Shown here: positions 3,725 to 19,053 of the stretch, piece after piece
Numbering within the stretch: the stretch's first letter is position 1
How the letters are laid out: every line of letters starts with the position of its first letter
From: a virus
DNA: 20,717 nt
Virus genome (UHGV): UHGV-1961940
Strand: one strand, 5' to 3'
Notes under the pieces: generated by a model
What the model saw: only the letters and a program-made list of their open reading frames with translations
Told to the model about the DNA's origin: nothing
The model's database searches: none
Made by a program: the position numbers and the translations under genes

Positions 3725-3729
3725 CTTGG

Positions 3730-3996
3730 CTACCCGTTCTTAATGATAGCACTGTAGTGAGATTTAGCTTCCTGAATGCAATGGGTCCAAGCATCAACCT
3801 TCTCTTCGAAAAGTCCAAAGAACTTCTTTTTGGTGAGCTTCAGATTCTTTAAGTGCTTAAGCACTCGGTTGCCGATTACAGCCACATCACGAAACTTAAG
3901 AATCACTTTGTCGATATCCTCGCGACCTATTTTCACAAAACAGGCCTTACACATTTCAGGGGAGGAATAACCAACTTTCCACATAAAATCTGACAT
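3730..3996 (-). CDS. Hypothetical protein, 88 aa.
   Basis: ORF in the leftward operon; tightly spaced. An SD GGAGAAGG lies upstream of the ATG at 3996. Confidence 0.55.
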   Translation of the reverse strand: MSDFMWKVGYSSPEMCKACFVKIGREDIDKVILKFRDVAVIGNRVLKHLKNLKLTKKKFFGLFEEKVDAWTHCIQEAKSHYSAIIKNG

Positions 3997-4008
3997 ACCA
4001 CCTTCTCC

Positions 4009-4311: not shown

Positions 4312-4402
4312 AGTATATCCACTATTCAGAACTTCTGCAAGCTCTTTTCAGCATCTTCCAATTTGGCTAAGTGGTATTGGATAATCTTCACACCTGTAAT
4401 CA

Positions 4403-4708
4403 TCAGAAACCTCCCACTTCTTCAGCAAATGCAGCTGCTGTCGTCGCTGCATCCAGATAGGACTCTAGTTCACGGGCTGCACGTTTGTAAATTGAGTGGC
4501 GCATATCGTTTGGCAGTTGGTGGGAGTCCACCTCTTCACCGTTGTGGTAAACATGCACATCGGTGATTTGTCTAAATCCGTAACAGTCAACATCAGAATC
4601 CCGGCACTCCGGATCTGGCAACTGAACAACTGCCTGAGCTTCCACAGTAAACATATCGTCAAGTTCGAAATCGATTTCAAAAGTGTATGGTTTATAACGT
4701 TTCATCAT
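4403..4708 (-). CDS. Hypothetical protein, 101 aa.
   Basis: ORF in the leftward operon, 13 nt downstream of the methyltransferase stop. Confidence 0.55.
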   Translation of the reverse strand: MMKRYKPYTFEIDFELDDMFTVEAQAVVQLPDPECRDSDVDCYGFRQITDVHVYHNGEEVDSHQLPNDMRHSIYKRAARELESYLDAATTAAAFAEEVGGF

Positions 4709-4721
4709 TTGATTGTACTCT

Positions 4722-6047: not shown

Positions 6048-6074
6048 CGTTTGGTGCTCTCCTTAGTTTTTTGT

Positions 6075-6091
6075 GGGGAGGAGGCCTCCCC
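6075..6091 (-). promoter_or_regulatory. Intercistronic RNA hairpin GGGGAGG-AGG-CCTCCCC between the 113-aa gene stop and the methyltransferase SD.
   Basis: Perfect 7-bp GC-rich stem. It has the same stem sequence and the same position (stop, hairpin, UUU, AAGGAG, ATG) as the hairpin at 1215-1239. Confidence 0.35.
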
Positions 6092-6108
6092 TTTATACTC
6101 ACATCTTA

Positions 6109-6450
6109 CTACTCAAGGTCTTCAGAGTCAAGCTCAAAAAGAATCAAACTGTGCATGCCTGCAGATAGATTAACACACCCTGCAACAATAAGGGTCTGAT
6201 AGTAAGGTTCAGCACCCTCAATGTCTTCGTTAAAATCCACAACAAGGTAGTCACCTTTGTTAAAGGTGTATTTGTCCGATGTAAACGCAAAACCTGCCCA
6301 GTCCCCTACTGCAGGGTCTTTATCAGTCACCTTTGTTAACAGTAGATCTTTTTCACGGGATCTTTTAGTAAAATCGTGAATCACAACATCCTTCTCTTCA
6401 GGAGTTGGATTGCCACACACGTAGTTAACTATATTTCTCCACAAACTCAT
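6109..6450 (-). CDS. Hypothetical protein, 113 aa. The start is reassigned to the internal ATG at 6450.
   Basis: The track ORF 6109..6492 would overlap the helicase by 68 nt. The ATG at 6448-6450 has a GAGGGG SD and overlaps the helicase stop by only 26 nt. Confidence 0.6.
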   Translation of the reverse strand: MSLWRNIVNYVCGNPTPEEKDVVIHDFTKRSREKDLLLTKVTDKDPAVGDWAGFAFTSDKYTFNKGDYLVVDFNEDIEGAEPYYQTLIVAGCVNLSAGMHSLILFELDSEDLE

Positions 6451-7816
6451 ACGTCCCCTCTTCGGCTCTGGTTTCAAAATCTTTCCTGACAATTTTGTCT
6501 AAGTCAGGGAATGTTGTATTGTAAAACTCTACGACTCGCGGGTCAACAATAATGTCAACTTCTCTTAGTGGACGCAACAAGTTTATTCCTTGTATTGTCT
6601 TAACCCGACTCAAAGCAACATACGTCATCCCAGGAGAGAAAGCTCCGTTCTTTCCAAGGTCCAGGTTGTAACAATCTAGCGTAAGTCCTTGACTTTTATG
6701 AGATGTTACGGCATACCCAGATTTCAGAGGAAGTTGCCTGTATGACCCAATCACTACCCTCTCTATAAACTTCTCCATCTTCCTTTCTGCAATGTTGTAT
6801 CTCTGAGATGGCTTATACTCGTTATTTTCCCACAACCTCTGCTCTATGTCAACCTGTGTTCCATCTTCAAGCTCTACCACCACCGCCTTGTTCTTAAATT
6901 TAACAATTGTGGCACGTGTTCCGTTAACATAATAAGGTACTTTGTGCGTCGGGTCAACATCGTTGGCGGTTATCATAACTTTCATGCCAATTTTCAACTT
7001 CATCTCCTGCTCAACTGGCAGGGTGGAGGGAAACTTACCCTTCATTTCACCAGTGTATACCTTCTCTGGGGCGTTGATGGCATCATAGAACCTTCTGTTC
7101 ACTTCCTCTGCTTGTTTGTTGGTGGCGCAAATTGTGAGAGCGTCTGTTGGTACACCGCCTTTGTAACAGCGAGCATTAAGTTCTGCTACAACCTCTTTTA
7201 TGCGACGACCCTCACGAACACAGTTGAGCATTGTGGCAAATCGAATAGACTCCTGTCGGAACTGGTCTATTAGGGCTATGTTGTGAAGGTCCAGCTCTTT
7301 CCAAGATTCGGTATAGCAACATAGGTCTGTGTGGTAGAAGTTGAAGTAGGCCTCCTTCTCCATAGAAGAGACAACAGGAGGTGCCTGGTAAAAATCGCCA
7401 AACAATATGACCTGTATGCCTCCGAAAGGTTTGTCATTTTTTCGAAGGAAGCGGAGTTTTCTATCCATCTCTATAAACTTATCAGCACGGATCATAGAGA
7501 TTTCATCGATAATTAGGATGGTAAATGCCTTGCTTTTCAAAGGCTTTGCTGTTTTTGCCCTTATTGCAGTCCAGTCAGACTCCATGCTCACACCTGCTGC
7601 AAGATCGAAGGTTCGGTGTGCTGTTGCTCCATTAACGTTTAAAGCGGCTACCCCTGTCGGGGCAACCGTTATGCAAGAGTCTCCATACATTGACTGGATC
7701 ATGTTGATGAGGTACGTCTTCCCACAACCTGCGGGTCCTGAAACGAAGACATTCTCCCCACTCATGATTGCAACAAGGGCAGCATCTGTGCCTACATCAT
7801 ACTGCCCTTTTTCCAT
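6425..7816 (-). CDS. SF1B DNA helicase, Dda/RecD/Pif1-like.
   Basis: Walker A is VSGPAGCGKTYL and Walker B is LIIDEISM. The C-terminal block is GYAVTSHKSQGLTLD. A GAGGAGG SD is present. The start overlaps the upstream gene's stop as TAATG. Confidence 0.85.
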   Translation of the reverse strand: MEKGQYDVGTDAALVAIMSGENVFVSGPAGCGKTYLINMIQSMYGDSCITVAPTGVAALNVNGATAHRTFDLAAGVSMESDWTAIRAKTAKPLKSKAFTILIIDEISMIRADKFIEMDRKLRFLRKNDKPFGGIQVILFGDFYQAPPVVSSMEKEAYFNFYHTDLCCYTESWKELDLHNIALIDQFRQESIRFATMLNCVREGRRIKEVVAELNARCYKGGVPTDALTICATNKQAEEVNRRFYDAINAPEKVYTGEMKGKFPSTLPVEQEMKLKIGMKVMITANDVDPTHKVPYYVNGTRATIVKFKNKAVVVELEDGTQVDIEQRLWENNEYKPSQRYNIAERKMEKFIERVVIGSYRQLPLKSGYAVTSHKSQGLTLDCYNLDLGKNGAFSPGMTYVALSRVKTIQGINLLRPLREVDIIVDPRVVEFYNTTFPDLDKIVRKDFETRAEEGTYEFVEKYS

Positions 7817-9021
7817 TACGCCTCCTCGTAGATAATGTCGATGATGTTACCATCACGGTCAACTACGTATTCAATCGGATCGCCATCTTTGCGTGATTCC
7901 GGTGCTGCTACGATTTCGTAGCGGCATGCACGGCACTTAGCACTGTTGTGTTGGTATGGCACACTAACCACATCCGCAGGGTCAACCATAACCATCATTA
8001 CAGTGCCATAGCCCGCTGCATACTCTTTGCTGGCGCAGTGCAGGCCATAAGAACACGCAGCTTCCGGATCATCTTCTACAAAGTTACGAGGCATGGACAC
8101 AAAAGCACCCTGGTATTGTGGAACTTTACCGCTGTGCCAATCCACCCACCTGCTCCCGTTAAACTGAACCCCCTTATAGCAAATGATTCGACCATCTTCT
8201 GCAACCTGGATGTCATTAGCCTGCATGAAATCGTAGAGCATGTTCACAGATTTTGCAGACGGGTTGCGTAGCAGACGGACAAGGAATTTAACATATCGGT
8301 CGTCCAGTGTTCCATCTACATAATCTTCCTCAATTTTCTTTGCAATGGTGGATCGCATCTCTACACCGTAGTAGTAGAGCTTACCATCTTTCATGATCAG
8401 GTTGTCTGCAAGTGTGGTGAACTCATTCTTGCGTTCCAGCCAGACAAGGATTTCACCAATTGCCTCATCATATTCCTGAACAGAAATATGGTCGAAGACT
8501 TTCTGGTAAACTTCCTCACTTTCGCTGCGGCGAATTTCAAAAATGCCTTCGTTGCAGGTGATCTGGAGGAGTTCCCCGCAAATAACTACCAAAGGCTCGA
8601 TGCTTCGAGACTGTTGCTGAGACACACTGCTCACTACTTCCAGCACCGGATCTTTGACTTCTACTAAAGGTTCTTCTGACTTGATTGCTACCCCAGTGAA
8701 CCCCACACCGTGAACAACACACAGTGGGTATACCACGCCCCAACGTTTAACGGAACCTTCACCTGAATCTAAGATCATGGCGTACTTACCGTTGTCTTCC
8801 AGTCCGTAGCGGAATAAACGGGCCTCTTCGCGGGTTTCAAAATCCTCACGGGTATAGCAGACACTGTCTCGGTCAGGATCAAACAGCTCTGGGGCACCTA
8901 CTGCCAGTGTCCATGTTGTAGTACCTTTCTCAATAGCACATGTGAAACCCTTCTTCTCAAGTTCTGCACGGCGGTCGCGTGCTTCTTTACGAGTTTTGAA
9001 ATGTTCGTAGATGAAAATCAT
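7816..9021 (-). CDS. Hypothetical protein, 401 aa. The conserved-looking C-terminal block is of unknown family.
   Basis: Long ORF with a TAAGGAGACAGC SD. The C-terminal region is ...GLHCASKEYAAGYGTVMMVMVDPADVVSVPYQHNSAKCRACRYE.... I could not assign a domain from sequence alone. Confidence 0.7.
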   Translation of the reverse strand: MIFIYEHFKTRKEARDRRAELEKKGFTCAIEKGTTTWTLAVGAPELFDPDRDSVCYTREDFETREEARLFRYGLEDNGKYAMILDSGEGSVKRWGVVYPLCVVHGVGFTGVAIKSEEPLVEVKDPVLEVVSSVSQQQSRSIEPLVVICGELLQITCNEGIFEIRRSESEEVYQKVFDHISVQEYDEAIGEILVWLERKNEFTTLADNLIMKDGKLYYYGVEMRSTIAKKIEEDYVDGTLDDRYVKFLVRLLRNPSAKSVNMLYDFMQANDIQVAEDGRIICYKGVQFNGSRWVDWHSGKVPQYQGAFVSMPRNFVEDDPEAACSYGLHCASKEYAAGYGTVMMVMVDPADVVSVPYQHNSAKCRACRYEIVAAPESRKDGDPIEYVVDRDGNIIDIIYEEA

Positions 9022-9032
9022 AGCTGTCTCCT
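9002..9032 (-). repeat. Copy B of the translation-initiation cassette (see 3444-3479).
   Basis: AGGAGACAGC-TATG-ATT-TTCATCTAC-GAACA on the minus strand matches AGGAGACAGC-AAATTG-AAA-TTCATCTAC-AAAGAACA at copy A. Confidence 0.5.
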
Positions 9033-11014
9033 TATTTGGTGTTATTCTTTGCGTCGATCAGTTCACGGTATTCAATCATAGCAGGAGTGTCCCAATATTT
9101 CAAGCCCACATGCTTCAAAAGTGGATATTTCTTTTCCAATCTTGCAATATAGGCCTTCCCGCACTTGACTCGGTTGGCGATTAAGATTTTGGCACGATGA
9201 TTTAGCTCACTGTGCTTCCACGCGGTGTTACCTTCCCACTTGTGGAAATGTGGCCGATAATTTCCAAAATCTTGCATGGGGATAATTTTCCCTAATTGTC
9301 TATACAGGCTGTCATATGAAGTTTCATTTGCTGCGCGAGTCAGTAAGAATTTCCAAGCATCCTCTTTCAACAAATGTTCCACATTCTTCTCTGTAACATA
9401 CTGGCAATCAGGATCAGTCCAAAGCAGACGAGATTCTGATACCAAGTACAGATCTTCACCTTCAGGAATCTGGAGTGCAGCACGCACACGGTCATAATTT
9501 TGCTGGTAGATGTTACTCAGCTGTCCCAGCCAACAACTTCCACGTTGGATATCACCCTCATAAGGAATGCAGTGCTTAATCTTCTTGAACTCTGCCTTAG
9601 TAATACGTTCACGACGGAAGTAACCATCCTTCTCAAGCTTTTTAACCCAATAACCTGGCTCGTAATGAGTTTTTGTTTCACCTTTCTTCGCAGGTCGGCG
9701 AGGGAGCTCTGATAACAATTTGACAGTATCTGCAAAGAACGGATGGTGTGCCGCCTCTTTAAACTCTTTCACCAGATCCGTGTTCCGGCAATAGAAAACG
9801 TTGCGTCCGGTGATTTCGCTTAAGTAGTTACACTTATTTCGGTTATATTTACCATCTCCGTCGTTAAATACAAGGTATACACCTCGTAAGAACTCCGACT
9901 TTCCGTAACGAGCATAGCCTATGCGGCCTTTATTTAAGCCGCCAGCGAAAATTTCACAATCGCCTAAGTCGCCAAGCCCTGTTTCTTCCCAACGGTTCCA
10001 CATAAAGTTTTTGCCGAAGATGTGTCCGAACACTCCACTATTCTTCATCATTTCACGTGCTTCTGCGGAGGTTTTTGCCGTCTCCAGTTCTGCAATAACT
10101 TCTGCCCCGCGAAGACGTATACCTTCTTTGACAAAGGCCTCCAGGCGATCCTGGAATCCACCGTCGTCATGGCCCTCTATGGTCCATTCACGCCCAGGGT
10201 TAATATTGCAATCCCCAATAGGAATTTCCACGCAGATTGCAGGGTAATCGGTCAATGTCTCCAGGAACTTGGAGCGGTAAGGTTGGTGACCCATCACAAC
10301 ACGGCTCTCATCAGAACTGGTATAACCTTTCAGGATGGTCATTTTCCAGCCATCCTTCTCGTAATGATACTGTGCCTCAACCTTGTCACCTTCTAACATC
10401 TTACTGGTCATAGGATCGGTGACGATGAACGGAAACTTCGCATAGCGTAAGCACGATGCAATAGCAGTGCAATATTTCAGGACATGCTCTTTCTTAACAT
10501 GGAACTGAACTTTTACCCCGTTGTGCTCTTCAGTCTTCCGCTCACGGATCTTGGTAACGTTTGGGATACCCTGATCCAAGAACAATAGATATGTGCTTTC
10601 AACACCATTGTGCACACTGATCACATCGAAAGTGTCCACCATACTGAACGGAGCCTTTGAACCAACACCTTTATTACCTACCAGAGCGTTGCTGTTGCGC
10701 TTGGTTGACTCCCCGAGATTCATGAAAGTGTTGCGGACCATCTCTTCTGACATGCCCAATCCAACGTCCTGCACAAAGAAGTATGGTTCAAGGTCTGTAG
10801 GAGAGTGAATGATGATCGGTACATCACCCCGTCCAGACTCAACATGGGAGTCCACAGCATTGAAGATTGGTTCACGGCAGCTTGCCAGCACCTTATCTTC
10901 GTAAATCCCTTTAATGATTAGCCCAAAAGTCTCTTTGTTCAGAGAAATTGAGCCCCTGGTGACCTCCATATTTCCGGTCAGCACTGCTTTAGTTTCATTA
11001 CTGTTTACAATCAT
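9032..11014 (-). CDS. GHKL (Bergerat-fold; HATPase_c-type) ATPase domain protein, 660 aa, with a large uncharacterised C-terminal region.
   Basis: N box is REPIFNAVDS (ExxxNAxD), G1 box is DVGLGM and G2 box is GNKGVGSKAPF. An AAGGAG SD is present. The start overlaps the hydrolase stop as ATGA. Confidence 0.65.
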   Translation of the reverse strand: MIVNSNETKAVLTGNMEVTRGSISLNKETFGLIIKGIYEDKVLASCREPIFNAVDSHVESGRGDVPIIIHSPTDLEPYFFVQDVGLGMSEEMVRNTFMNLGESTKRNSNALVGNKGVGSKAPFSMVDTFDVISVHNGVESTYLLFLDQGIPNVTKIRERKTEEHNGVKVQFHVKKEHVLKYCTAIASCLRYAKFPFIVTDPMTSKMLEGDKVEAQYHYEKDGWKMTILKGYTSSDESRVVMGHQPYRSKFLETLTDYPAICVEIPIGDCNINPGREWTIEGHDDGGFQDRLEAFVKEGIRLRGAEVIAELETAKTSAEAREMMKNSGVFGHIFGKNFMWNRWEETGLGDLGDCEIFAGGLNKGRIGYARYGKSEFLRGVYLVFNDGDGKYNRNKCNYLSEITGRNVFYCRNTDLVKEFKEAAHHPFFADTVKLLSELPRRPAKKGETKTHYEPGYWVKKLEKDGYFRRERITKAEFKKIKHCIPYEGDIQRGSCWLGQLSNIYQQNYDRVRAALQIPEGEDLYLVSESRLLWTDPDCQYVTEKNVEHLLKEDAWKFLLTRAANETSYDSLYRQLGKIIPMQDFGNYRPHFHKWEGNTAWKHSELNHRAKILIANRVKCGKAYIARLEKKYPLLKHVGLKYWDTPAMIEYRELIDAKNNTK

Positions 11015-11511
11015 TTATTGCGCTCCTTGTAGTAGATATGGCTCCCGAATTGAGTTGTCCTCTGCATCTTTTTTGCCCATTTCGGTCGTACTTTGGTTGT
11101 ATGGTAGTGTGTTGCTCCACCTGTTATGTCCATAGCCATGTATGCAACATGGTTGTTATTATAGACCTTTATAAGCATCTTTGCAAGACTTTTAGCGTGA
11201 TCCCATGAATCTTTTTCTGTCACCTTAAAAGTTTTGCCGTGGTTTGTCCACGAAAACTGGTTAGGTTGGTAGACAATCTTTCTTATAGTGTCTGGGTATT
11301 TAGGGTGGGATTTCCTGTTTAGTGTGGCAAACCCAGATGCCAGCATACCCATCGTGCCATCTCCTCTAGCTTCCCTGTAGATATTGCATGCCAGAATGTT
11401 TTCCTTAGTATCTGATGGCTTGCAAGTATGATATACTTTTTGTTTTGGTGCTGCAACAACAGGCAGCGATAAAAGTGCGCTCAAAATAATAGCAAAGATC
11501 TTAATTTTCAC
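11011..11511 (-). CDS. Secreted cell-wall hydrolase of the SleB/CwlJ (Hydrolase_2) family, with an N-terminal signal peptide and a GTG start.
   Basis: The N-terminus MKIKIFAIILSALLSLPVVAAP is a typical signal peptide. The family block is ACNIYREARGDG...YPDTIRKIVYQPNQFSW. A GGAG SD lies 7 nt before the GTG. Confidence 0.75.
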   Translation of the reverse strand: MKIKIFAIILSALLSLPVVAAPKQKVYHTCKPSDTKENILACNIYREARGDGTMGMLASGFATLNRKSHPKYPDTIRKIVYQPNQFSWTNHGKTFKVTEKDSWDHAKSLAKMLIKVYNNNHVAYMAMDITGGATHYHTTKVRPKWAKKMQRTTQFGSHIYYKERNK

Positions 11512-11520
11512 AATGACTCC

Positions 11521-11548
11521 AAATAGAAAATCCCCGCCGAAGCGGGGG
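11521..11548 (-). terminator. Rho-independent terminator on the minus strand between the 126-aa gene and the hydrolase gene.
   Basis: Minus-strand RNA reads CCCCGC-UUCG-GCGGGG, a 6-bp GC stem with a UUCG tetraloop, followed by AUUUUCUAUUU. Confidence 0.6.
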
Positions 11549-11560
11549 AGGTCTTAGAAA

Positions 11561-11941
11561 TTAATCGTAGTGTGCCAAAATCTCTCCATCGTTGCAAGTT
11601 CCCTCTACAAAGTTATGAAGATTCATGCACTCATCTTGATAGAAGAATTTACCGCTTTTCAGCCGTAGGCCAAACAACTCCGCATCTCCACGATGGCAAG
11701 CCTCTACAAGTTCATAGATTTCATACGGCAACTCTCCGTCGTCATGGAAGAATCCAGCCTTATCGTTGACATAAATGAAGAAATAATCACTGCTATCGCA
11801 AGCGTCCAATATTTTAAACCAGACTTCATCTACATCTTTTTCTCGGATATCGATCACGCAAGTGGAACTGCATTCGTACTCCTTCTCCGGCTCCTCGGTC
11901 AATACCACCAGGTAGTTTCCCCGCTTACCTACTTTAGCCAT
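11561..11941 (-). CDS. Hypothetical protein, 126 aa. The start is reassigned to the internal ATG at 11941.
   Basis: The track ORF start at 11989 would overlap the MoxR gene by 38 nt. The ATG at 11939-11941 is preceded by an AAGGGGGG SD. Confidence 0.6.
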   Translation of the reverse strand: MAKVGKRGNYLVVLTEEPEKEYECSSTCVIDIREKDVDEVWFKILDACDSSDYFFIYVNDKAGFFHDDGELPYEIYELVEACHRGDAELFGLRLKSGKFFYQDECMNLHNFVEGTCNDGEILAHYD

Positions 11942-11951
11942 ACAACCCCCC

Positions 11952-13136
11952 TTAAGCTTTAGCCAAAATGGCGCTAAACTCTTCACCAAACTCTTTTACA
12001 ATCTTCATCAGGTTTGGGTATGCTTTGATCAGCTGAGCAACAATCTTGTCACGCCCTTTACCGATAAGCAAGGCATTTCCTAAGGCATTAGGTTTCATCA
12101 TCGCCATAAAGACTGAGAATACAAAATCTCGGTTCTCGTCCTTGAAGTTTTCCCAAAGGAAATCGAGGAAGTTTGCCACGCAGCTGACAAGATCTTCGTC
12201 TGAGATACTTGCATTTTCCATCATATTGCGAATAGCGATACAACCTTCAGATCCAAGAATCCACAAAATGTCTGGCTGCTTAGGACCTACGTATTCTTTG
12301 CAGCCACCTGCCATAATCCGACCGATTTCCGGTAAATTACGTTTCTTGGTGTGGTAAGTCCAGATCTCTACCGCTGCAGTGTGACCAATAGCACCTTGTA
12401 GAAGAACACGGGCCATAGCGTCAGAAATAATACCGCTGTCAAAATCGTGCAAGATGTCAGATGCAGCAACCCAAGATCGTGGTGTGGCAAAAGATGGACA
12501 ATTAATCTCAGCCATAGCCTCATAATTATCAATAGCTGATGGAACTCTTTTCAGATACCCAATTACAGAGGAGTGAACCCCGTTGAGGAATGCGTAGTCC
12601 TCAATAAACACCTCTGCATTGCTTGTAACCTCTACAATGATAAAACGGTTAGCCAGAGGGGCTTCGAGCGCCGAAAGAACCGCACCATCTGTAGAACGGT
12701 TACCCGCAGCCACAAAAACAGAACCCTTAGGGAATGCATAGGTGCCGCACTTGTGGTCAAGCATAATTTGCATTGCAACCTTTTGCAGGTAGTTATCTGC
12801 ATGAGTGAGCTCATCCAGAAAGATAATTCCGCTCCAGTCAGGATCCGCAGGCCAAAATTCTGGAATTGCAAACACTGTACGTGTAGTTCCATCCGCTTCT
12901 ACAGGGATAGGTAGCCCAGATAAGTCGGCAGGATCTTTATCTGACAGTCGCACGTCAACAAGGTTGTCATCTCGCTCACCGAACATATTATCAGCGATCT
13001 GCTTCATCACCTGGCTTTTACCCACACCCATTGGTCCCAAAATTAGGACAGATCGGCTATGACGTTGGGCAAACTGAATAATAGCTGGCAACTCACGGAC
13101 AGTGATTTGACCACTTTCGAATACGTTTCTTGACAT
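11952..13136 (-). CDS. MoxR/CbbQ/NorQ/CobS-like AAA+ ATPase (AAA_5 type).
   Basis: Walker A is LGPMGVGKSQ and Walker B is IIFLDELTHAD. The sensor/arginine-finger region is VFVAAGNRS...APLANRF. The start overlaps the upstream stop as TAATG. Confidence 0.85.
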   Translation of the reverse strand: MSRNVFESGQITVRELPAIIQFAQRHSRSVLILGPMGVGKSQVMKQIADNMFGERDDNLVDVRLSDKDPADLSGLPIPVEADGTTRTVFAIPEFWPADPDWSGIIFLDELTHADNYLQKVAMQIMLDHKCGTYAFPKGSVFVAAGNRSTDGAVLSALEAPLANRFIIVEVTSNAEVFIEDYAFLNGVHSSVIGYLKRVPSAIDNYEAMAEINCPSFATPRSWVAASDILHDFDSGIISDAMARVLLQGAIGHTAAVEIWTYHTKKRNLPEIGRIMAGGCKEYVGPKQPDILWILGSEGCIAIRNMMENASISDEDLVSCVANFLDFLWENFKDENRDFVFSVFMAMMKPNALGNALLIGKGRDKIVAQLIKAYPNLMKIVKEFGEEFSAILAKA

Positions 13137-13405
13137 TAGTAAAAGTCCTCTACTTGTGTGTAAGTGTTTTCAAAGTTTTCCAAAACAGATATCACATCGA
13201 ATCTGTCAATATCATACGTGACTCTCCAGTTGTACGCAACCCTTTCTGCTGTTGCCTCTTCTGGCGCTAGTCGTCTGCTGGCATAAAAGAGTGTTGGAGT
13301 ACACTTTCTTGCTTGCCCTCTAACTTTCCCATAATAATATCTGTGAATATCTTTGTCAAAATTTAACTCTTTTTCTGCACGAAGTTCATATTGCTGGTAT
13401 AACAT
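13136..13405 (-). CDS. Hypothetical protein, 89 aa.
   Basis: ORF with an AAGGAG SD 9 nt upstream. Translationally coupled to the MoxR gene. Confidence 0.55.
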   Translation of the reverse strand: MLYQQYELRAEKELNFDKDIHRYYYGKVRGQARKCTPTLFYASRRLAPEEATAERVAYNWRVTYDIDRFDVISVLENFENTYTQVEDFY

Positions 13406-13449
13406 CTCTACTACTCCTTAAGCAGCATCCTTGCCGCCATTCCTGCCCA

Positions 13450-13830
13450 CTAAAATGCAGTCCGAATCCAGACAAGGTTCTTATCTGCCCAATCATAGAG
13501 GCAAGTCATTGCACTATTGAATTGCTCACACGGAGGATAATCTTCTTCCATCTGGCGCATAGCAGAGCCTTGTGGGTAAAGCTCCCGTGCTGCAAACCAC
13601 GCATCGTAGTCATCAACGGTGTCGAAGTAGTATACAACATCCTCTAACTCAGGATCGAACTTTGAACTATCAGGATCCAGTTGTTCAGGGAACTTGGAGC
13701 GTAACTTGCCAGCCACAATACTTGCCAACTCGCTAACATGCTTATTGTCCCACTCCACTAGCTTCCCGTCTTCAGTGATGCGTCCTAACCACTGATCATG
13801 AAGGTCAACTGTTGTCTTCCACTGAGCCAT
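13450..13830 (-). CDS. Hypothetical protein, 126 aa.
   Basis: ORF in the leftward operon, 2 nt from the upstream gene. Confidence 0.6.
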   Translation of the reverse strand: MAQWKTTVDLHDQWLGRITEDGKLVEWDNKHVSELASIVAGKLRSKFPEQLDPDSSKFDPELEDVVYYFDTVDDYDAWFAARELYPQGSAMRQMEEDYPPCEQFNSAMTCLYDWADKNLVWIRTAF

Positions 13831-13832
13831 TA

Positions 13833-14090
13833 TCAGTCCACCTCTTCTTCTCGTTGTAGTTCAAGATACCCGTAGGTCTGGACATCTTGAAGGGTGTGGA
13901 ACTCCCCCTCTGCCGCTAAGGCACGAACAACTTGGCACAAAACCTTATGAGGAACTTCATCCAAACCTAGATTCAGTGCAGGAAACACCTTATCTAAGTC
14001 AACAAAATAAACGAACTGTAGCTCACCAGCTTCAAAAGGTGTATCTTCAATAAACATCTTCTCGGCATTAGTCAAGATCTGCACTTTCAT
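13833..14090 (-). CDS. Hypothetical protein, 85 aa.
   Basis: ORF whose start is TAATG-coupled to the upstream gene. Confidence 0.55.
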   Translation of the reverse strand: MKVQILTNAEKMFIEDTPFEAGELQFVYFVDLDKVFPALNLGLDEVPHKVLCQVVRALAAEGEFHTLQDVQTYGYLELQREEEVD

Positions 14091-14446
14091 TATTCTACCT
14101 CCTCTTCTTTTTCTTCGGCATTAGTTTCATGGCTACCCCACTCGGGAGTTTCCACCTCGATAGTAAACTCACGCACTACACGGTAATTGCCCATGAAGCG
14201 CTCTACTTCGTCAAGGCTTATGGAGAGGCCATTGGCAACCAGGTCTGCAGCACCCTCTTCTACCAGGTAGTCCAGATTGGCTTCCAGAGCCTCAGGTTCA
14301 AACCCTGTCAATGCAATCAGATAACCTTCCCCTTCATCAGGGAGGACAATACAGCCCAATTGATTTTCTTTAAAAAGGCAGTGACCATCATTATTGATTG
14401 GGTGTTCATTGCAGTAAATAGCTGCACGATAAGTAACTTTAGACAT
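14090..14446 (-). CDS. Hypothetical acidic protein, 118 aa, starting MSKVTYRA. The start is reassigned to the internal ATG, which has an AAGGAG SD.
   Basis: AAGGAGACCTTACCG ATG TCT AAA GTT.... The first 24 coding nt plus 5 upstream nt are identical to 16285-16313. The C-terminal EEKEEEVE is acidic. Confidence 0.6.
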   Translation of the reverse strand: MSKVTYRAAIYCNEHPINNDGHCLFKENQLGCIVLPDEGEGYLIALTGFEPEALEANLDYLVEEGAADLVANGLSISLDEVERFMGNYRVVREFTIEVETPEWGSHETNAEEKEEEVE

Positions 14447-14451
14447 CGGTA
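14423..14451 (-). repeat. Copy 1 of a perfect 29-nt repeat taccgATGTCTAAAGTTACTTATCGTGCA spanning a start codon. Copy 2 is at 16285-16313 on the opposite strand.
   Basis: Exact 29/29 identity, read by hand on both strands. Confidence 0.85.
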
Positions 14452-14459
14452 AGGTCTCC

Positions 14460-14738
14460 TTAGGCAATTGTCATTTTACATTCTTGAAATTTTAACACAA
14501 GACGGTAATTGTGTCTAGTGTCTAAAAAGATTTTTTCAACCATCAGGCACACGGTATAACCGTCCATCTTGTTGACAACAAAATCTCCAGGATGAGGGAG
14601 GATGTCTCCCGGATTGGGGAAACATAGTCCACTCAGAAAGGCATCGTCAGTGGTGGACTTAATAGATTTCCACACACTGTCTGCCTGAACATGTTCACCG
14701 ACGTAATATACATTACCACATGCCTTCATCATAGTCAA
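14460..14738 (-). CDS. Hypothetical protein, 92 aa.
   Basis: ORF whose start overlaps the stop of the upstream 299-aa gene. Confidence 0.55.
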   Translation of the reverse strand: MTMMKACGNVYYVGEHVQADSVWKSIKSTTDDAFLSGLCFPNPGDILPHPGDFVVNKMDGYTVCLMVEKIFLDTRHNYRLVLKFQECKMTIA

Positions 14739-15634
14739 ACCCTCGCATAAATTAAACTTGTATCAGTATACTTCTTTAATGGGTAAATATCCTGTCCATA
14801 GATGCAATCATTAAACACCTCATCTACCCAAAGGCTACACTTATATCCCATCATTTCTAAAACACCCATCTCTTCTTCGGTAAACTTATCACCGCTCTTG
14901 CAAGATGTCAATACCTCATTCTGAACTCTTGCTACCTCGAAGCGGTTATTGGCAATATCGCTATTGGCGATCAAATACTCACCTAGAGGGTGTGCGGCAT
15001 TAAAGATGCACAGTGGACGGCTGACGTAATAGTCTCCAGGTGTATAAAAATTGTTGAGGTCTTTCACTAGAACATTCTTATCAGTCACTTCATTTATAAC
15101 ATCATGCATATCGCACATCTTTATATGTTTGAGGATTCCATCCCCCATCACAAAATAAAAACTTGCTGAGACACTTTCGGCATAGATCTTACTAGATCCG
15201 TTGTAGTTGTATTTTACTCGGATGCTAACGGGGGTTTTTCCTGTCGCGTTAGCCATCATCCAAAGAAATGGCAGCTCATACTTCTCCTCTGAGGAAACAA
15301 AAGGTGAGGTAGCCAGAGATCGAAAACCTCCAGAGAAGTTGAAAGTTACAGAACCGCTCCGGCGGTATGATACCGCGTATTCTACTTTTATATCGACATA
15401 CCCATTGGAATAGGTGTGTCCTTCATTATCTAAATATGTCCACTTATCAGACCCAGATACCAATCTACGCTCAATAACCTTCATCACTATAGGAATTAAT
15501 GGGTTGGTACAAACCGCTTTTGAAGTAGCTTTATCATCTAAAGCCTCGTAAATTGCAGAAAGGATGTCCCCAGCTGAAAGATTGGTTGTTATGTCCTGTT
15601 TCCACCGCGTACTAAAACTGTTAAGATTTGCCAT
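14735..15634 (-). CDS. Hypothetical protein, 299 aa. It is the first gene of the leftward operon.
   Basis: An AGGAG SD lies 9 nt upstream of the ATG at 15634. The gene is immediately downstream of the predicted leftward promoter. Confidence 0.65.
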   Translation of the reverse strand: MANLNSFSTRWKQDITTNLSAGDILSAIYEALDDKATSKAVCTNPLIPIVMKVIERRLVSGSDKWTYLDNEGHTYSNGYVDIKVEYAVSYRRSGSVTFNFSGGFRSLATSPFVSSEEKYELPFLWMMANATGKTPVSIRVKYNYNGSSKIYAESVSASFYFVMGDGILKHIKMCDMHDVINEVTDKNVLVKDLNNFYTPGDYYVSRPLCIFNAAHPLGEYLIANSDIANNRFEVARVQNEVLTSCKSGDKFTEEEMGVLEMMGYKCSLWVDEVFNDCIYGQDIYPLKKYTDTSLIYARV

Positions 15635-15674
15635 AAGTAAGTGCTCCTATGTTAGTTTTCTTTCGAATGGGTGC

Positions 15675-15703
15675 ACTATATTGTGGAGTTAGAGTAAAGT
15701 CAA
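15675..15703 (-). promoter_or_regulatory. Sigma70/SigA-type promoter for the leftward operon: TTGACT, 17 nt, TATAGT.
   Basis: On the minus strand, the -35 TTGACT is the revcomp of 15698-15703, the spacer is 17 nt, and the -10 TATAGT is the revcomp of 15675-15680. It lies about 40 nt upstream of the ATG at 15634. Confidence 0.5.
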
Positions 15704-15721
15704 CACGTTTTTGATGTTGAC
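15699..15721. promoter_or_regulatory. Candidate operator: perfect inverted repeat GTCAACA-N9-TGTTGAC. Each arm contains a -35 hexamer of one of the two divergent promoters.
   Basis: GTCAACA is at 15699-15705 and TGTTGAC at 15715-15721. The left arm overlaps the minus-strand TTGACT. The right arm overlaps the plus-strand TTGACA at 15717-15722. Confidence 0.4.
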
Positions 15722-16754
15722 ATCTGTTGAGACAATTGATACGATTTCTTCACTTACAGAGCACGAGAGACGACTCATGAATCTTGAAAAATATTATACA
15801 CCAGAAGAGTTAGAGCGCTTGCTCAAAAAATATAGACGCAAACAGAATAACGCACGGAAACGAGATATAGAGTTCGACCTGTCATGGGAAGAATACCTCC
15901 TATTTGGTAAAAAACTTTTAGGAGATGGAGTATGCGACTATACCCTTATACCTTTTGACATGCACACAGATGAAAACGGGCTGGGGAATCCTTTCTACCC
16001 ATCCCTGGAGCGGATAGATGATGAAGGTCCTTATGCGGTTGATAACTGTTGTGTGGTGGGATTGAGATGCAACTCTCTAAAGGACTGTCTGGTAGATAAA
16101 AAGACTGCAGTCTTGATTAAAGACGAAACTGATCGAAAAATTGTCCAGCAGATGATGCTCCACCTGAGCGAAGAGCGTATGGAGAAATTGAAAGGTGATT
16201 ATACTTTTGAAGATTTCATCTTGCAATATGGAACGGAAGAGGATAAACTAGCACTCTTTGACGAAGAAGAGGAGGAAGATATGCTACCGATGTCTAAAGT
16301 TACTTATCGTGCACCCAAGAAGCACATTTCCGACATTGTAAACGAGCCTATCACAGAAGAGATTGAAGAAATGACGCAACAGGTGCATGAAGAGGAAAAA
16401 GAGACTCAGGAGGTCGAAGAGGAGCTTACAGAAGAGGTTCCTGCACTACCTGATGATGTTGAGATTGCCAAAGCTTACACTTTCTATTGTCAAACGTTCT
16501 ACGATGTAGGTATGAAAGTTGATCTGTCGTTCAGCCAATTTAAGAGTTCGTATATTCGCAAATGCTGTGCTTTAACTGGTGAACGTCTTGGAGCTGGACT
16601 TAAACCCCTGTTGGTGACCGACTGGAATAAAGGTTTCACTAAAGGAAACTTTATGGTAGTATCTCCAATTATGAAGAAAGCTATGACAGATCTTATGAAG
16701 ACCACCCGCATGACAATGACCGAGTTGGCAGGTATTTTCAAACACGTTAAATAA
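15711..16754 (+). CDS. Protein with two tandem, degenerate Endo VII-like (HNH-fold, recombination endonuclease VII family) modules. The start is uncertain: TTG 15711 or ATG 15714 have no SD; the ATG at 15777 has a weak GAGAGA SD. An internal in-frame start at 16281/16291 with a GAGGAGG SD could give a nested C-terminal isoform.
   Basis: Module 1 is ARKRDIEFDLSWEEYLLFGKKLLGDGVCDYTLIPFDMHTDENG...LRCNSL. This resembles Endo VII family RKxYGIxxEEYxxLxxxQGGxCAICG...VDHDHxTG...LLCxxCN. Module 2 is IRKCCALTGERLGAGLKPLLVTDWNKGFTKGNFMVVSP, with DWNK in place of DHDH. The assignment is by remembered motif pattern, not by search. Confidence 0.5.
   Translation: MMLTSVETIDTISSLTEHERRLMNLEKYYTPEELERLLKKYRRKQNNARKRDIEFDLSWEEYLLFGKKLLGDGVCDYTLIPFDMHTDENGLGNPFYPSLERIDDEGPYAVDNCCVVGLRCNSLKDCLVDKKTAVLIKDETDRKIVQQMMLHLSEERMEKLKGDYTFEDFILQYGTEEDKLALFDEEEEEDMLPMSKVTYRAPKKHISDIVNEPITEEIEEMTQQVHEEEKETQEVEEELTEEVPALPDDVEIAKAYTFYCQTFYDVGMKVDLSFSQFKSSYIRKCCALTGERLGAGLKPLLVTDWNKGFTKGNFMVVSPIMKKAMTDLMKTTRMTMTELAGIFKHVK
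15717..15745 (+). promoter_or_regulatory. Candidate rightward promoter: TTGACA, 17 nt, TACGAT.
   Basis: The -35 is a perfect TTGACA at 15717-15722. The -10-like TACGAT at 15740-15745 has the TAnnnT pattern. If this promoter is used, the rightward gene more likely starts at the ATG at 15777. Confidence 0.3.
16285..16313 (+). repeat. Copy 2 of the perfect 29-nt start-codon repeat (MSKVTYRA), inside the Endo VII-like ORF directly after a GAGGAGG motif.
   Basis: Identical to the revcomp of 14423-14451. Confidence 0.85.
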
Positions 16755-16758
16755 TGAC

Positions 16759-16775
16759 AGGGGCCAATGGCCCCT
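16759..16775 (+). promoter_or_regulatory. GC-rich hairpin AGGGGCC-AAT-GGCCCCT just after the Endo VII-like gene stop. It sequesters the ATG at 16767.
   Basis: 7-bp stem with a 3-nt loop, followed by TCTGGAGTTTTAATG. It may act as an attenuator or terminator and argues for the downstream start at 16788. Confidence 0.3.
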
Positions 16776-18248
16776 TCTGGAGTTTTAATGGATAGCAGAA
16801 GTTCAGAAATCATTGCCTCGCAGAAAGATGATGCCCTGAGAATGTTGCAGGCTGCACGTATGTATCTCCTTGAAAAGCTGCCGTTTTATGGCACACTACT
16901 GTCAGGGTTGCAGTTCGTAGAAAACCACACATGGTGCTCCACCATGGCAACCGACCATAAACGCATCTATTACAGTCCTGAGTTCATTATGGGATTGGCT
17001 GATGAACGCAAGGCTATTCTTAAGGCTTCTCTAACTGACGAGCAGTTTGAGATGGCTGAAGTTTTCTATTCTCCAAAATCTGTGAAAGAGGTGGCCTTCC
17101 TTCTGTCACATGAGGTGGGGCATATTATCTGTGATCACCTAGTCCGTGGTAAAAGCTTTGAGCCGGAACTGTTCAATATTGCTTGTGATCACGTTATCAA
17201 CACAGGCCTTGTGGTTGACTTTAGCAAACCTCCTTGTGTTTTCTTCCCGAAGGGGAAAAGCACTACGTTCATGAAAGGTAAGCCTTTTGGCTTCTTAGCC
17301 AGCTGCTACTGCGACATGAAGTTTCATGGATGGATTGCTGAGAACGTTTATGCAGTTCTTGATAAGCAAAGAGATCAGAATAACGGTAAAAGTAAGAACG
17401 GTAAAGGTGAGAACTCTCAAAGTGATAAGCGACAAACCGATGATCACATGAGTGGGAACGGTGGCACCAGTGATAATCTTGGAAAGGCTATGGGGTATGA
17501 TCAGCCACAACCTGTAATCAGCCAATCTGATAAAGATCAGGCCATGCAGGACTCTGGTGATATGCTGGAGGCAGCAATGCAAGCGTCCGGAGGCCGTTGC
17601 CCTGAGGCGGTGCGTGAGTTTGTCAAGAACAGAGGTAAGCCTGTAATCAACTATATAGACATCATTAAGCAACGTATGTTGTCTAAAAGAAAGGCCGAAC
17701 TGACCTACAGAAAACCTGGTCGCCGATCTGGGTCTTTGACCAGCACAATGCGAAAAGTTGGGGCTATAAACAAGAACCAGCACGTTATTGTTCCTGGTCG
17801 TAATCCGGAAAACACTATAGATATTGTGGTGGCTTTAGACGTTTCTGGCTCGATCTCTCAAAGAACTTTAAAGAAAATGTTCAATGAAATCACCGGATTG
17901 TGCAATCTGTATAAAGAGTTTAAGGTTACAATGTTCTGTTGGTCAACTGAGGTTGGAGAGGTTAAAGTATACACTCGCGGCAACATAGACGAGATGGTCA
18001 ACTATGAGGTCCACTCAACATGGGGCACAACAGCTGCTTGCGTGTTCGAGTATCTGGATGCCAACATACCTAATGCAAAAGATGTCATCGTCCTGACCGA
18101 CCTATACTTTGAGCATAACTTTGAACAAAAGGTTGTTGACAACAAGTGGAAAAAGTACGATACTCTATGGGTCCTCACTGAGGGGTATAATAAAAATTAT
18201 ATCCCGAGCTTTGGGAAAACTGTGGAATTAATCGAGTACGCTAAGTAA
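16767..18248 (+). CDS. Zincin-like putative metallopeptidase domain (HExxH) fused to a von Willebrand factor A (VWA) domain. Probable partner of the MoxR-like ATPase. The ATG at 16788 (MDSRSSEI, GGAG SD) is an alternative start.
   Basis: The N-terminal domain contains HEVGHIICDH. The MIDAS motif is IVVALDVSGSIS (DxSGS). This matches DUF2201_N plus VWA (CoxE/NorD/CobT-like) architecture. Confidence 0.8.
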   Translation: MAPSGVLMDSRSSEIIASQKDDALRMLQAARMYLLEKLPFYGTLLSGLQFVENHTWCSTMATDHKRIYYSPEFIMGLADERKAILKASLTDEQFEMAEVFYSPKSVKEVAFLLSHEVGHIICDHLVRGKSFEPELFNIACDHVINTGLVVDFSKPPCVFFPKGKSTTFMKGKPFGFLASCYCDMKFHGWIAENVYAVLDKQRDQNNGKSKNGKGENSQSDKRQTDDHMSGNGGTSDNLGKAMGYDQPQPVISQSDKDQAMQDSGDMLEAAMQASGGRCPEAVREFVKNRGKPVINYIDIIKQRMLSKRKAELTYRKPGRRSGSLTSTMRKVGAINKNQHVIVPGRNPENTIDIVVALDVSGSISQRTLKKMFNEITGLCNLYKEFKVTMFCWSTEVGEVKVYTRGNIDEMVNYEVHSTWGTTAACVFEYLDANIPNAKDVIVLTDLYFEHNFEQKVVDNKWKKYDTLWVLTEGYNKNYIPSFGKTVELIEYAK

Positions 18249-18263
18249 GAGAGGAGGTTATTT

Positions 18264-18527
18264 ATGGCAACAGAGTTAAAATTTGCATCAAACCGTAAAA
18301 CTAAGAAGTATCTGTCCTCAGTAGCTCCAGGCACTGTGGTGATGTTTGTTGATGAACTTGGGGATGTGAATACAGCACTTGTTGTAAAATCACATCCTGC
18401 AAACATATATGTTGGGGTATTTGACCTGTTCAGAAAGGTGTTTGTAGAACTGCCTCACAGTTTGGTTGTTACAGAAATGGATGCCTGCATAGAAATTCTT
18501 GGCGAAGTTATGGTGGAGGAACAATAA
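18264..18527 (+). CDS. Small protein, 87 aa. Paralog 1 of a four-member tandem family.
   Basis: MATELKFASNRKTKKYLSSVAPGTVV...VTEMDACIEILGE. A GAGGAGG SD is present. It aligns clearly with paralog 2. Confidence 0.65.
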   Translation: MATELKFASNRKTKKYLSSVAPGTVVMFVDELGDVNTALVVKSHPANIYVGVFDLFRKVFVELPHSLVVTEMDACIEILGEVMVEEQ

Positions 18528-18790
18528 TGGCTACCAGCATTGTATTCAATTCTAAGGTGAAGAACAAAAAGCGTGCAGACAGTTTTCCGTGTGGGACCGT
18601 GGTAAGTTGCGACGGAGACGGCATTCAAAACATAGTTATGATTGTCAAAACAGGAGAACATTGTGTGTGGGGGTTCGATTTAGAAAATAATGAGTTGTAC
18701 GATCTGCCGCCAAACATGAAAGTTACAGAGCTTGACACCAAAATTACCATCCTTGGAGAGACAAGCTATTCAAAAGAAGGAGGAGAATAA
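18527..18790 (+). CDS. Small protein, 87 aa. Paralog 2.
   Basis: MATSIVFNSKVKNKKRADSFPCGTVV...VTELDTKITILGE. The start is TAATG-coupled to paralog 1. Confidence 0.65.
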   Translation: MATSIVFNSKVKNKKRADSFPCGTVVSCDGDGIQNIVMIVKTGEHCVWGFDLENNELYDLPPNMKVTELDTKITILGETSYSKEGGE

Positions 18791-19053
18791 TGACCACAAA
18801 AATCACTATCGCAGAACCGAAAGCTAACACTCAGCCTATCGAAAAGTTTAAGTACGGTGAGGTGGTAACATTCACACCAGATAATGAAGATGCTAAGATT
18901 TTCGCAATGGTCACAGCTGAGTGGATGTGTGACAACACCACACAGGTTCTGCGTTTTGACACCTATCTTACCGATGAAATCAGGAACGACAAGATTGTGA
19001 CTGGTGTGGATACTGAGATTGTTTTCTACAAGAGCTTTTTAGAGGGTTTCTGA
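18790..19053 (+). CDS. Small protein, 87 aa. Paralog 3 (more diverged).
   Basis: MTTKITIAEPKANTQPIEKFKYGEVVTF...KIFAMVTAE. TAATG-coupled. GAAGGAGGAG upstream. Confidence 0.6.
   Translation: MTTKITIAEPKANTQPIEKFKYGEVVTFTPDNEDAKIFAMVTAEWMCDNTTQVLRFDTYLTDEIRNDKIVTGVDTEIVFYKSFLEGF

Follow-up and report, generated by a model that had tools for sequence, protein, structure and literature searches.

A divergently encoded MoxR-class ATPase and zincin-like/VWA protein in an rV5-like phage as a probable N4 gp24/gp25-type remodelling module

Do an AAA+ ATPase and a zincin-like/VWA protein that are encoded on opposite strands of one phage genome belong to a single machine, and if so, of what kind? The question is raised by the window, a 20,717-nt stretch of virus genome UHGV-1961940, which is 99.9% identical to the Vequintavirus Escherichia phage Murica and, by this sequence match, comes from an rV5-like coliphage. 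A sequence-only reading had placed a 394-aa ATPase ORF at 11952–13136 (minus strand) and a 493-aa VWA ORF at 16767–18248 (plus strand), about 3.6 kb apart; both ORFs were confirmed, and the distance between them, which contains a divergent promoter region, is 3.63–3.65 kb. In the GenBank records of rV5-like phages the genes are already named MoxR ATPase and metallopeptidase with VWA domain. Both having been annotated before, our result for the window is mainly confirmatory; the pair itself is known, and what is new here is that its split is conserved. Our answer, which we consider probable, is that the two proteins form the rV5-lineage counterpart of the phage N4 gp24/gp25 module, a NorQ/NorD-like AAA+/VWA remodelling complex equipped with a zincin module.

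The ATPase is a homologue of N4 gp24 (phrog_1297 match at 2e-110). Its Walker A, GPMGVGKS, lies at residues 33–40 (13017–13040, minus strand), its helix-2-insert hairpin at residues 74–89 (12870–12917, minus strand) and its Walker B at D107-E108 (12813–12818, minus strand); sensor-1 is N145, the arginine finger R163 and sensor-2 R219, and an extra C-terminal helical domain runs from about residue 270 to 393. GxxGxGKS (33–40), LDE (106–108), AAGN145, PLANR163 and ATPR219 do not vary among 43 homologues, and conservation along the ATPase is highest in the helix-2-insert region. In the AF2 model (pLDDT 85.6), DSSP assigns two predicted strands after helix 2 (74–80 and 83–89), which would form the helix-2-insert hairpin, and a short predicted pre-sensor-1 hairpin (128–133) ahead of strand 139–144.

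Assigning this protein to a class needed a profile and a structure model, since the simpler searches stopped at the P-loop: Pfam scored AAA_5 at 16.7 bits against a cut-off of 22, with all AAA families below threshold and AAA_3 absent; Pfam and NCBIfam together returned P-loop matches only, all sub-threshold; and a single-sequence search of the PDB went no further than similarity to ClpB and ClpC at the level of Walker A. The sequence profile, by comparison, matched Midasin AAA domains in the PDB at 2e-9, and Foldseek with the model gave NorQ (3.7e-9) and CbbQ2 (1e-8) as top matches, at target-normalised TM-scores of 0.62–0.68, the NorQ structures coming from NorQ–NorD VWA complexes. Homologues at 1e-44 bear AAA_3, AAA_5 and bpMoxR domains, which in homologues of 31–36% identity are mostly weak matches. 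From homologues, motifs and the predicted structure, the protein is a MoxR-class ATPase; the ORF and the class proposed earlier stand, and AAA_5 is not a significant Pfam match. The sub-threshold Pfam scores and the Walker A-level similarity to ClpB and ClpC are what one would expect of a generic P-loop or AAA protein outside the MoxR class, whose co-occurrence with a VWA gene would be coincidental. We hold this to be very improbable, and indeed effectively refuted by the domains of the 1e-44 homologues, by the structural matches to NorQ and CbbQ, with sensor and arginine-finger motifs of MoxR type, and by the adjacency to a VWA gene in 83/100 loci described below. PADLOC defence models gave only sub-significant P-loop matches to the ATPase, none to the VWA protein and no match to the neighbouring genes.

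The gene of the putative partner, a homologue of N4 gp25, probably starts at ATG 16788 and not at 16767, giving a protein of 486 aa (16788–18248, plus strand). A GGAG ribosome-binding site precedes ATG 16788, which is the start in all GenBank annotations, and ATG 16767 falls in the loop of a GC-rich hairpin (16759–16775). The start of the 493-aa ORF was accordingly revised, and its zincin-like plus VWA architecture was upheld: Pfam finds, in N-to-C order and both above the gathering score, DUF2201_N (PF13203; 99.1 bits, cut-off 23.2) and DUF2201 (PF09967; 44.0 bits, cut-off 26.4). The HEVGH noted earlier is indeed present (residues 115–119 of the 493-aa ORF; 17109–17123, plus strand), in the form HExxH(x4)H, and is borne by helix 99–114 of the predicted structure. 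HExxH is invariant among 43 homologues, at identities down to 21%, and so are H117 and D134 of the 486-aa protein. A disordered linker occupies residues 202–228 (486-aa protein), and a conserved RPxRR-type motif reads KPGRR in the window. The VWA fold carries a full MIDAS, DxSxS...T...D, formed by D351-x-S-x-S355 (17838–17852, plus strand) and completed by T414 and D438, and the NorD VWA is among its top structure matches.

It is conservation of the HExxH motif that suggests that the partner may be a protease. Its N-domain profile gave marginal matches in the PDB to minigluzincin (0.0017) and to M48 peptidases (0.12–0.2), while fold searches with the model returned VWA matches only and no zincin. 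We tentatively propose, as a possibility, that the gp24/gp25 family is a new type of ATP-dependent protease, in which a MoxR ring would act through a MIDAS-VWA adaptor supplied in trans and a zincin domain would cleave a specific host or phage protein. The characterised MoxR–VWA pairs are all maturation or metal-insertion factors and none is a protease (PMC9976466, PMC13036017, PMC3893208), which speaks for a machine of the NorQD, CobST or MoxR type that works without proteolysis, as a chaperone or in metal insertion, and matures a phage or host metalloenzyme, with HExxH(x4)H holding or transferring metal or being structural. That NorQ, NorD and CbbQ are the nearest structures, and that a ferrochelatase gene adjoins the bacterial homologue, fits this as well. 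We nevertheless judge it unlikely: the catalytic glutamate of HExxH is invariant at 21–82% identity, as expected of a hydrolase and unneeded for metal storage, the N-domain profile finds peptidases, and no metalloenzyme client gene is conserved with the pair across phage groups.

The relation to N4 is close at the profile level, with hhalign probabilities of 99.9% (E 5e-35) for the ATPase against gp24 and 100% (E 2.6e-55) for the VWA protein against gp25. These are two of the 14 core genes of N4-like phages, where they are of the middle class (PMC4193335). Pairs of this type are present in N4-like, rV5-like and several jumbo phages and also in bacteria; the VWA-protein profile recovers 26,636 representatives at 50% identity (E ≤ 1e-10), and a scan of 185,579 species genomes found the phage-type ATPase clade on 10 contigs only, all from MAGs, which say little about its bacterial surroundings. 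Literature searches on DUF2201, COG3864, PF13203, MoxR with rV5 and N4 gp24/gp25 found no functional study, and the CRISPRi-ART paper holds no genome-wide data for EdH4 or N4.

How unusual the divergent arrangement is was addressed with a gene-order census, started from the ATPase, of 100 loci bearing an ATPase homologue. The VWA gene lies directly downstream on the same strand, at 2–534 nt, in 83 of these, and a divergent split of 3.56–3.94 kb occurs in five, all of the rV5 clade, with ATPase identities of 49–98% and counted as independent lineages. As the genes are neighbours also in N4, in jumbo phage K64-1 and on the Sulfurivermis chromosome, the claim that such pairs are usually adjacent and are split here is quantitatively correct. 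No second VWA gene was found near the ATPase. The phylogenetic profile that the sequence-only reading had suggested shows both proteins in the same phage groups, and the MoxR/VWA pairing that it put forward is supported by the NorQ and CbbQ structure matches, by the VWA fold and MIDAS of the partner, and by the neighbouring homologues.

The region between the two genes is organised around a strand switch at 15635–15776, where the GC skew also changes sign. The palindrome that had been taken for a shared control region is a real inverted repeat (GTCAACA-N9-TGTTGAC, 15699–15721), which is not necessarily an operator, because each arm is the −35 hexamer of one of a pair of sigma-70-like promoters lying back to back. 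The leftward candidate (15675–15703, minus strand; −35 TTGACT, 17-nt spacer, −10 TATAGT) coincides with a promoter annotation in phage Gotham and is conserved in loci L007 and L092; the rightward one (15717–15745, plus strand) combines −35 TTGACA and a 17-nt spacer with a TG-extended −10, TACGAT. GTCAA..TTGAC is conserved in L007, L092 and L093, and the back-to-back −35 layout is kept in two more diverged lineages.

On the leftward arm, headed by the leftward promoter, the ATPase is the seventh gene. The interval from promoter to ATPase holds no convincing terminator (a weak terminator-like site at 13460–13473 was discarded, folding giving it no support, z +0.3), and the unit is closed one gene past the ATPase by an intrinsic terminator, CCCCGC-UUCG-GCGGGG plus a U tract (11532–11547, minus strand; −13.5 kcal/mol, z −2.2), that is annotated in Murica and Gotham. 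An 89-aa ORF directly precedes the ATPase (13136–13405, minus strand) and ends in an overlap of its stop codon with the start codon of the ATPase gene (TAATG), which makes translational coupling of the two probable; the overlap is also kept in L007 and L092. For the 89-aa product a role as accessory subunit is possible, and its PHROG label, "ATPase", has no support. Inside this ORF lies a promoter-like site (TTGACA-17-TATTAT, 13331–13359, minus strand), some 190 nt ahead of the ATPase gene, that matches at 11/12 positions, as it also does in L007 and in L092, a lineage of 73% identity; it is possibly an independent ATPase promoter, and coding constraint could be an alternative cause of its conservation.

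On the rightward arm, the first gene encodes a 325-aa Srd-like protein (15777–16754, plus strand; "anti-sigma factor" in GenBank records), for which the start at 15777 is preferred because TTG 15711 and ATG 15714 lie upstream of the promoter. It stands immediately upstream of the VWA gene in all split lineages. Between the two is the GC-rich hairpin already mentioned (16759–16775, plus strand), with a 7-bp stem followed by UUCUGGAGUUUUA; at −13.4 kcal/mol its z is only −1.5, it carries a terminator annotation in Murica, and it is possibly a leaky terminator or attenuator. That a single control region governs both the ATPase and the VWA gene is plausible, and, with this hairpin before the VWA gene and the conserved promoter-like site before the ATPase, not obligatory. 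In the rV5 clade both genes apparently lie in an early region of host-takeover type, beside the Srd-like gene, rIIA and rIIB. We also observe that rIIA and rIIB are near the pair in the rV5-type genome and in N4 alike.

Has the split, then, ended the partnership? The two genes are in different transcription units, and upstream of the ATPase there is a conserved ORF, coupled to it, as well as a separate promoter-like site; in lineage L091, of 59% identity, a VWA gene is missing from the 8 kb around the ATPase, and a search of the phage collection with the ATPase of 59% identity (P0005) did not recover its lineage. In phage PA5oct and in locus L089, moreover, the ATPase and VWA genes are 1.5–2.9 kb apart, so that tight coupling would be dispensable and independence is conceivable. 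The rV5-like proteins might on these grounds have lost their partnership and be functionally independent, each acting alone or with another partner such as the 89-aa ORF product. We regard this as quite improbable, for every split lineage examined, at 42–49% identity at the lowest, keeps both genes with catalytic and MIDAS residues intact, the helix-2-insert, through which NorQ and CbbQ bind their partners, is still the most conserved part of the ATPase, and from lineage to lineage the divergence of one protein is paralleled by that of the other. As to outgroups, in L009 the rightward arm opens with the ATPase and VWA genes, and in L089 the two are on one strand, separated by four small genes; neither gave clear support to an origin of the split by a single inversion.

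Returning to the gp24/gp25-type remodelling complex, which we favour, we outline how it might work. Homology, motifs, folds, gene-order statistics and promoter architecture were computed, and from these we infer physical interaction, stoichiometry, proteolysis, target, expression timing and co-regulation. Most likely, by analogy with NorQ/NorD and CbbQ/CbbO, a hexameric ATPase ring would dock one adaptor via its VWA domain. The VWA domain would use its MIDAS site to hold an acidic residue of the target protein, and ATP hydrolysis would then deform the adaptor, by twisting or stretching, in such a way that the zincin domain can act on the target, most plausibly by cleavage. Expression would be early or middle in infection. 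In rV5-like phages an ancestral ATPase→VWA operon would have been split, with the ATPase now part of the leftward unit and the VWA gene in second place on the rightward one, so the products would have to assemble in trans.

If the protease proposal holds, such a machine would serve host takeover or an essential maturation step, and the rV5-type split would mean assembly from separately expressed subunits. The gp24/gp25 family is very large, a core module of N4-like phages and a major "dark" phage gene family. For this family the rV5-clade split amounts to a natural experiment, in which gene adjacency and translational coupling appear dispensable. Both N4 and rV5-like phages such as EdH4 are open to genetic work, which makes the pair a practical way into the function of the family, and it could serve to test whether MoxR–VWA machines can be proteolytic.

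Among other MoxR–VWA systems, the predicted ATPase structure is closest to NorQ and CbbQ2, and the phage partner shares with NorD the layout of N-domain, disordered linker and C-terminal MIDAS VWA (PMC9976466, PMC13036017). As with NorQ/NorD, the genes of phage-type homologues are usually neighbours. The differences are that NorD and CbbO lack the zincin-like HExxH N-domain of the phage partner, that the phage ATPase has an additional C-terminal helical domain of about 120 residues compared with NorQ and CbbQ, and that the phage-encoded pair comes without a cNOR or Rubisco client gene. Neither the window nor related loci contain cNOR, Rubisco or CobN client genes, and since the partner N-domain also differs (DUF2201_N), we reject identity with NorQD, CbbQO and CobST. 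CobS/CobT and RavA/ViaA share the logic of an AAA+ hexamer plus VWA adaptor, but a CobN-like or other client is absent here, the partner architecture differs, and neither system is among the best structural or sequence matches. Bacterial DUF2201_N plus DUF2201 proteins have the same two-domain architecture above Pfam thresholds, with an AAA gene directly upstream in Sulfurivermis fontis, but are only 21–31% identical to the rV5-type pair. The N4 pair (Schitoviridae), at only 21–27% identity, is adjacent and co-directional with a 167-nt gap, whereas the rV5-type genes are separated by 3.65 kb and a change of strand; the proteins that they encode are longer than those of N4 (394 vs 352 aa for the ATPase, 486 vs 380 aa for the VWA protein), and the VWA protein has an insertion of about 16 residues after the RPxRR motif. 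Even so, rV5-type and N4 pairs have near full-length homology and common motifs.

In the phage collection search, Escherichia phage Murica (Vequintavirus) matches positions 11000–19000 of the window at 99.9% identity, and at least 80% of the same segment is covered by 115 rV5-like records. In GenBank, the ATPase gene (394 aa) goes under “ATPase” or “MoxR ATPase”, and the VWA gene (486 aa) under “metallopeptidase, contains von Willebrand factor domain”. Sixteen “Campylobacter phage” records with Campylobacter jejuni as host also match this E. coli rV5-like segment (among the matches listed, Campylobacter phage C12 is 99.5% identical to it), and these host labels look doubtful. The ATPase ORF is present at 11952–13136 (minus strand), and its coordinates match the annotations. 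For the VWA gene, on the plus strand, the sequence-only reading had given a 493-aa ORF from 16767; that ORF exists, but the protein is probably of 486 aa (16788–18248), because the ATG at 16767 falls in the loop of a GC-rich hairpin just 5′ of the gene (16759–16775, plus strand), a GGAG ribosome-binding site precedes the ATG at 16788, and the gene starts at 16788 in all records inspected.

We accept the ATPase as MoxR-class on the basis of the domains of its homologues, its invariant motifs, a profile match and a structure model. The proposed MoxR-type assignment thus holds, while formal AAA_5 membership does not, all AAA matches in Pfam being sub-threshold. The homologue search returned thousands of relatives, among them proteins of about 360 aa (31–36% identity, E about 1e-44) carrying AAA_3, AAA_5 and bpMoxR domains. 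Walker A, Walker B, sensor-1 (AAGN), the arginine finger (PLANR) and sensor-2 (ATPR) are invariant in a 43-sequence alignment, in which the block of highest conservation is the helix-2-insert region (DVRLSDK-P-D--G-P-P...FWP-DP). Against the PDB, the profile finds the Midasin AAA domains (2e-9). The AF2 model (pLDDT 85.6, pTM 0.80) has the helix-2-insert and pre-sensor-1 hairpins and an extra C-terminal helical domain, and the PDB structures that fit it best are NorQ (2026 complexes with the NorD VWA domain) and CbbQ2, at E 4e-9 to 1e-8. That the gene encodes a generic P-loop protein, near the VWA gene by coincidence, is a very improbable alternative, and we regard it as effectively excluded.

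The partner matches DUF2201_N (4e-28) and DUF2201 (3e-11), both over the Pfam threshold. Across 43 homologues, down to 21% identity, the residues H108-E-x-x-H112, H117 and D134 and the MIDAS residues D351, S353, S355, T414 and D438 are invariant, and an RPxRR-type motif ahead of the first VWA strand is nearly so. In its AF2 model (pLDDT 82.7) a disordered linker (202–228) joins a helical N-terminal domain to a compact VWA domain. Compared with peptidases, the N-domain profile gives marginal matches: E 0.0017 for minigluzincin MJ1213 and 0.12–0.2 for M48 HtpX and BepA. The family is large, with 26,636 representatives at 50% identity matching the VWA-protein profile at E ≤ 1e-10. Both phrog_1314 (the DUF2201 zincin and VWA group, matched by the window gene at 16788–18248) and phrog_3118 (Srd-like, matched by that at 15777–16754) are described as “HNH endonuclease”, a label also found in RefSeq/GenBank on N4 gp25 (2165–3307 of the fetched N4 locus, L088), PA5oct gp144 (6581–7501 of the PA5oct locus, L104) and in many N4-like phages. 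It looks like a propagated mis-annotation, since HMMs find DUF2201 and no HNH domain.

The two proteins occur in the same phage groups by tblastn (Vequintavirinae and relatives, N4-like phages and several jumbo phages), and their genes are typically neighbours. We scored every fetched locus with HMMs of both families, which gave 100 loci with an ATPase homologue: in 83 the VWA gene follows the ATPase gene on the same strand after 2–534 nt (median 104 nt), and 10 run off the contig. Such pairs are therefore usually adjacent, as the sequence-only reading had stated. Adjacency is found for the closest ATPase relatives among environmental phages and on a Sulfurivermis bacterial chromosome, with the DUF2201 gene immediately downstream in both, and in the isolates N4 and K64-1. 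At L009, a locus with 35% identity, the rightward arm of a comparable divergent region begins with the adjacent pair. In PA5oct, gp149 and gp144 are separated by 2.85 kb that hold a homing endonuclease plus three small genes (L104, PA5oct 234078–239264); the ATPase gp149 carries the annotation “ESI-MS/MS”, that is, detection by mass spectrometry.

The placement in the window, on opposite strands and 3.6 kb apart across the control region as described, is indeed unusual: an opposite-strand split, of 3.56–3.94 kb, occurs in 5/100 loci, whose ATPases are 98% (L007), 73% (L092), 53% (L008), 51% (L093) and 49% (L090) identical to that of the window. At one further locus (L089, ATPase 42%), four small genes intervene. 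At L091 (ATPase 59%), no VWA/DUF2201 gene was found within 8 kb on either side on a 17-kb Logan contig (SRR16894747), so the partner has either moved far off or been lost; tail-fibre and baseplate genes lie there upstream of the ATPase, on the same strand. That the two proteins have become functionally uncoupled in the rV5 clade is improbable in our judgement. The window holds no further VWA-like gene near the ATPase, so the refuting check set by the sequence-only reading came out negative.

The two genes flank a 142-nt intergenic region with two sigma-70-like promoters recognised by sequence match, one leftward (TTGACT-17-TATAGT, 15703–15675, minus strand) and one rightward (TTGACA-17-(TG)TACGAT, 15717–15745, plus strand); the phage Gotham record has promoters annotated at both sites, and strand polarity and GC skew both change at about 15.65 kb. 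The palindrome noticed here earlier is real, and is explained by back-to-back −35 boxes: oriented outwards, they make up the inverted repeat GTCAACA-N9-TGTTGAC (15699–15721). Folded as RNA or DNA, its hairpin is unexceptional (z −1.1). We read it from its sequence as conserved promoter architecture because the GTCAA..TTGAC arrangement recurs in the near-identical L007, in L092 and in L093, the last two having VWA proteins 62% and 48% identical to that of the window.

The case for co-regulation of the two genes is weakened by the hairpin before the VWA gene and by a promoter-like site before the ATPase. The leftward unit comprises eight genes, with the ATPase seventh, and ends at a strong intrinsic terminator (11532–11547, minus strand). 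The promoter-like site (TTGACA-17-TATTAT, 13331–13359, minus strand) is a near-consensus sigma-70 match (11/12), kept at 11/12 in L092; it could be an internal ATPase promoter or reflect coding constraint (FD...YY codons), as it lies inside an 89-aa ORF (13136–13405, minus strand). This ORF ends in a stop codon that shares bases with the ATPase start (TAATG); the overlap, kept in L007 and L092, suggests translational coupling. The ORF has the PHROG label “ATPase” (phrog_13164) and no Pfam match, and could encode an accessory subunit of the ATPase.

The first rightward gene (15777–16754, plus strand; 325 aa) is an “anti-sigma factor” in GenBank and matches PHROGs described as T4 Srd / “decoy of host sigma70” (3e-15, 3e-10), with no Pfam or PDB match. 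Its start is probably 15777 rather than 15711 or 15714, as those codons fall upstream of the predicted rightward promoter. The split loci L008, L090 and L092 each carry a similar-sized gene at this position, next to their VWA gene, and homology is confirmed by sequence for L007 and L008. Three consecutive 264-nt genes follow the VWA gene (18264–19053, plus strand), the first two being paralogues (both phrog_10698); the near-identical L007 holds only one copy of this type, so the window shows either a recent tandem duplication or a difference in copy number. Downstream of the ATPase, the leftward block (1255–11511, minus strand) encodes a SleB-like cell-wall hydrolase, rIIA (HATPase_c_3), rIIB, a PIF1-like helicase, an N6/N4 DNA methylase and a DnaB-like helicase. 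In N4, too, a few kb separate rIIA and rIIB from gp24 and gp25. Mobile elements sit in the same early region of two split loci: in L090 (6081–7178), the stretch from the divergent promoter to the ATPase contains an IS605-type OrfB/TnpB gene and an RlaP gene, and in L092 (1–1557) the PIF1-like helicase gene harbours an intein that carries a LAGLIDADG domain.

By hhalign, the window ATPase is a homologue of N4 gp24 (probability 99.9%, E 5e-35) and the VWA protein of gp25 (probability 100%, E 2.6e-55), two of the 14 N4-like core genes, both of the middle class and with no assigned function (PMC4193335; PMC2784036). The divergent sigma-70 hub, the Srd-like neighbour, the nearby rIIA/rIIB and the middle-class gp24/gp25 together suggest early or middle expression and a role in host takeover or maturation. 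We found no functional study of the family (DUF2201, gp24/gp25) in the literature. The sequence-only reading was essentially right in observation and interpretation. The pair's genes were already annotated in rV5-like phages and the family catalogued; new are the quantified rarity of the split with its conservation across deep divergence in the rV5 clade, and the explanation of the palindrome. The instance in the window is ordinary; the family is a large, tractable unknown.

The best-supported reading of mechanism is by analogy with NorQD and CbbQO, in which a MoxR hexamer binds one adaptor via a VWA-domain finger that sits in the pore and touches the helix-2 inserts, the client is held through an acidic patch at the MIDAS site, and ATP-driven rotation stretches the linker between VWA domain and N-domain (PMC9976466, PMC13036017). 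The phage adaptor has the same layout of N-domain, linker and VWA domain, yet bears at its N-terminus a zincin-like domain in which the catalytic glutamate is invariant, for which reason we propose that a MIDAS-bound target would be presented, driven by ATP, to a putative adaptor-borne metalloprotease; interaction, proteolysis and target alike we infer. Its RPxRR segment (residues about 299–343) is a candidate for the loop or finger that would enter the pore. A chaperone for non-proteolytic maturation or metal insertion is unlikely, though less so than uncoupling. The family is a variant of the MoxR–VWA systems with a zincin-like domain, already catalogued as N4 gp24/gp25 and Pfam DUF2201.
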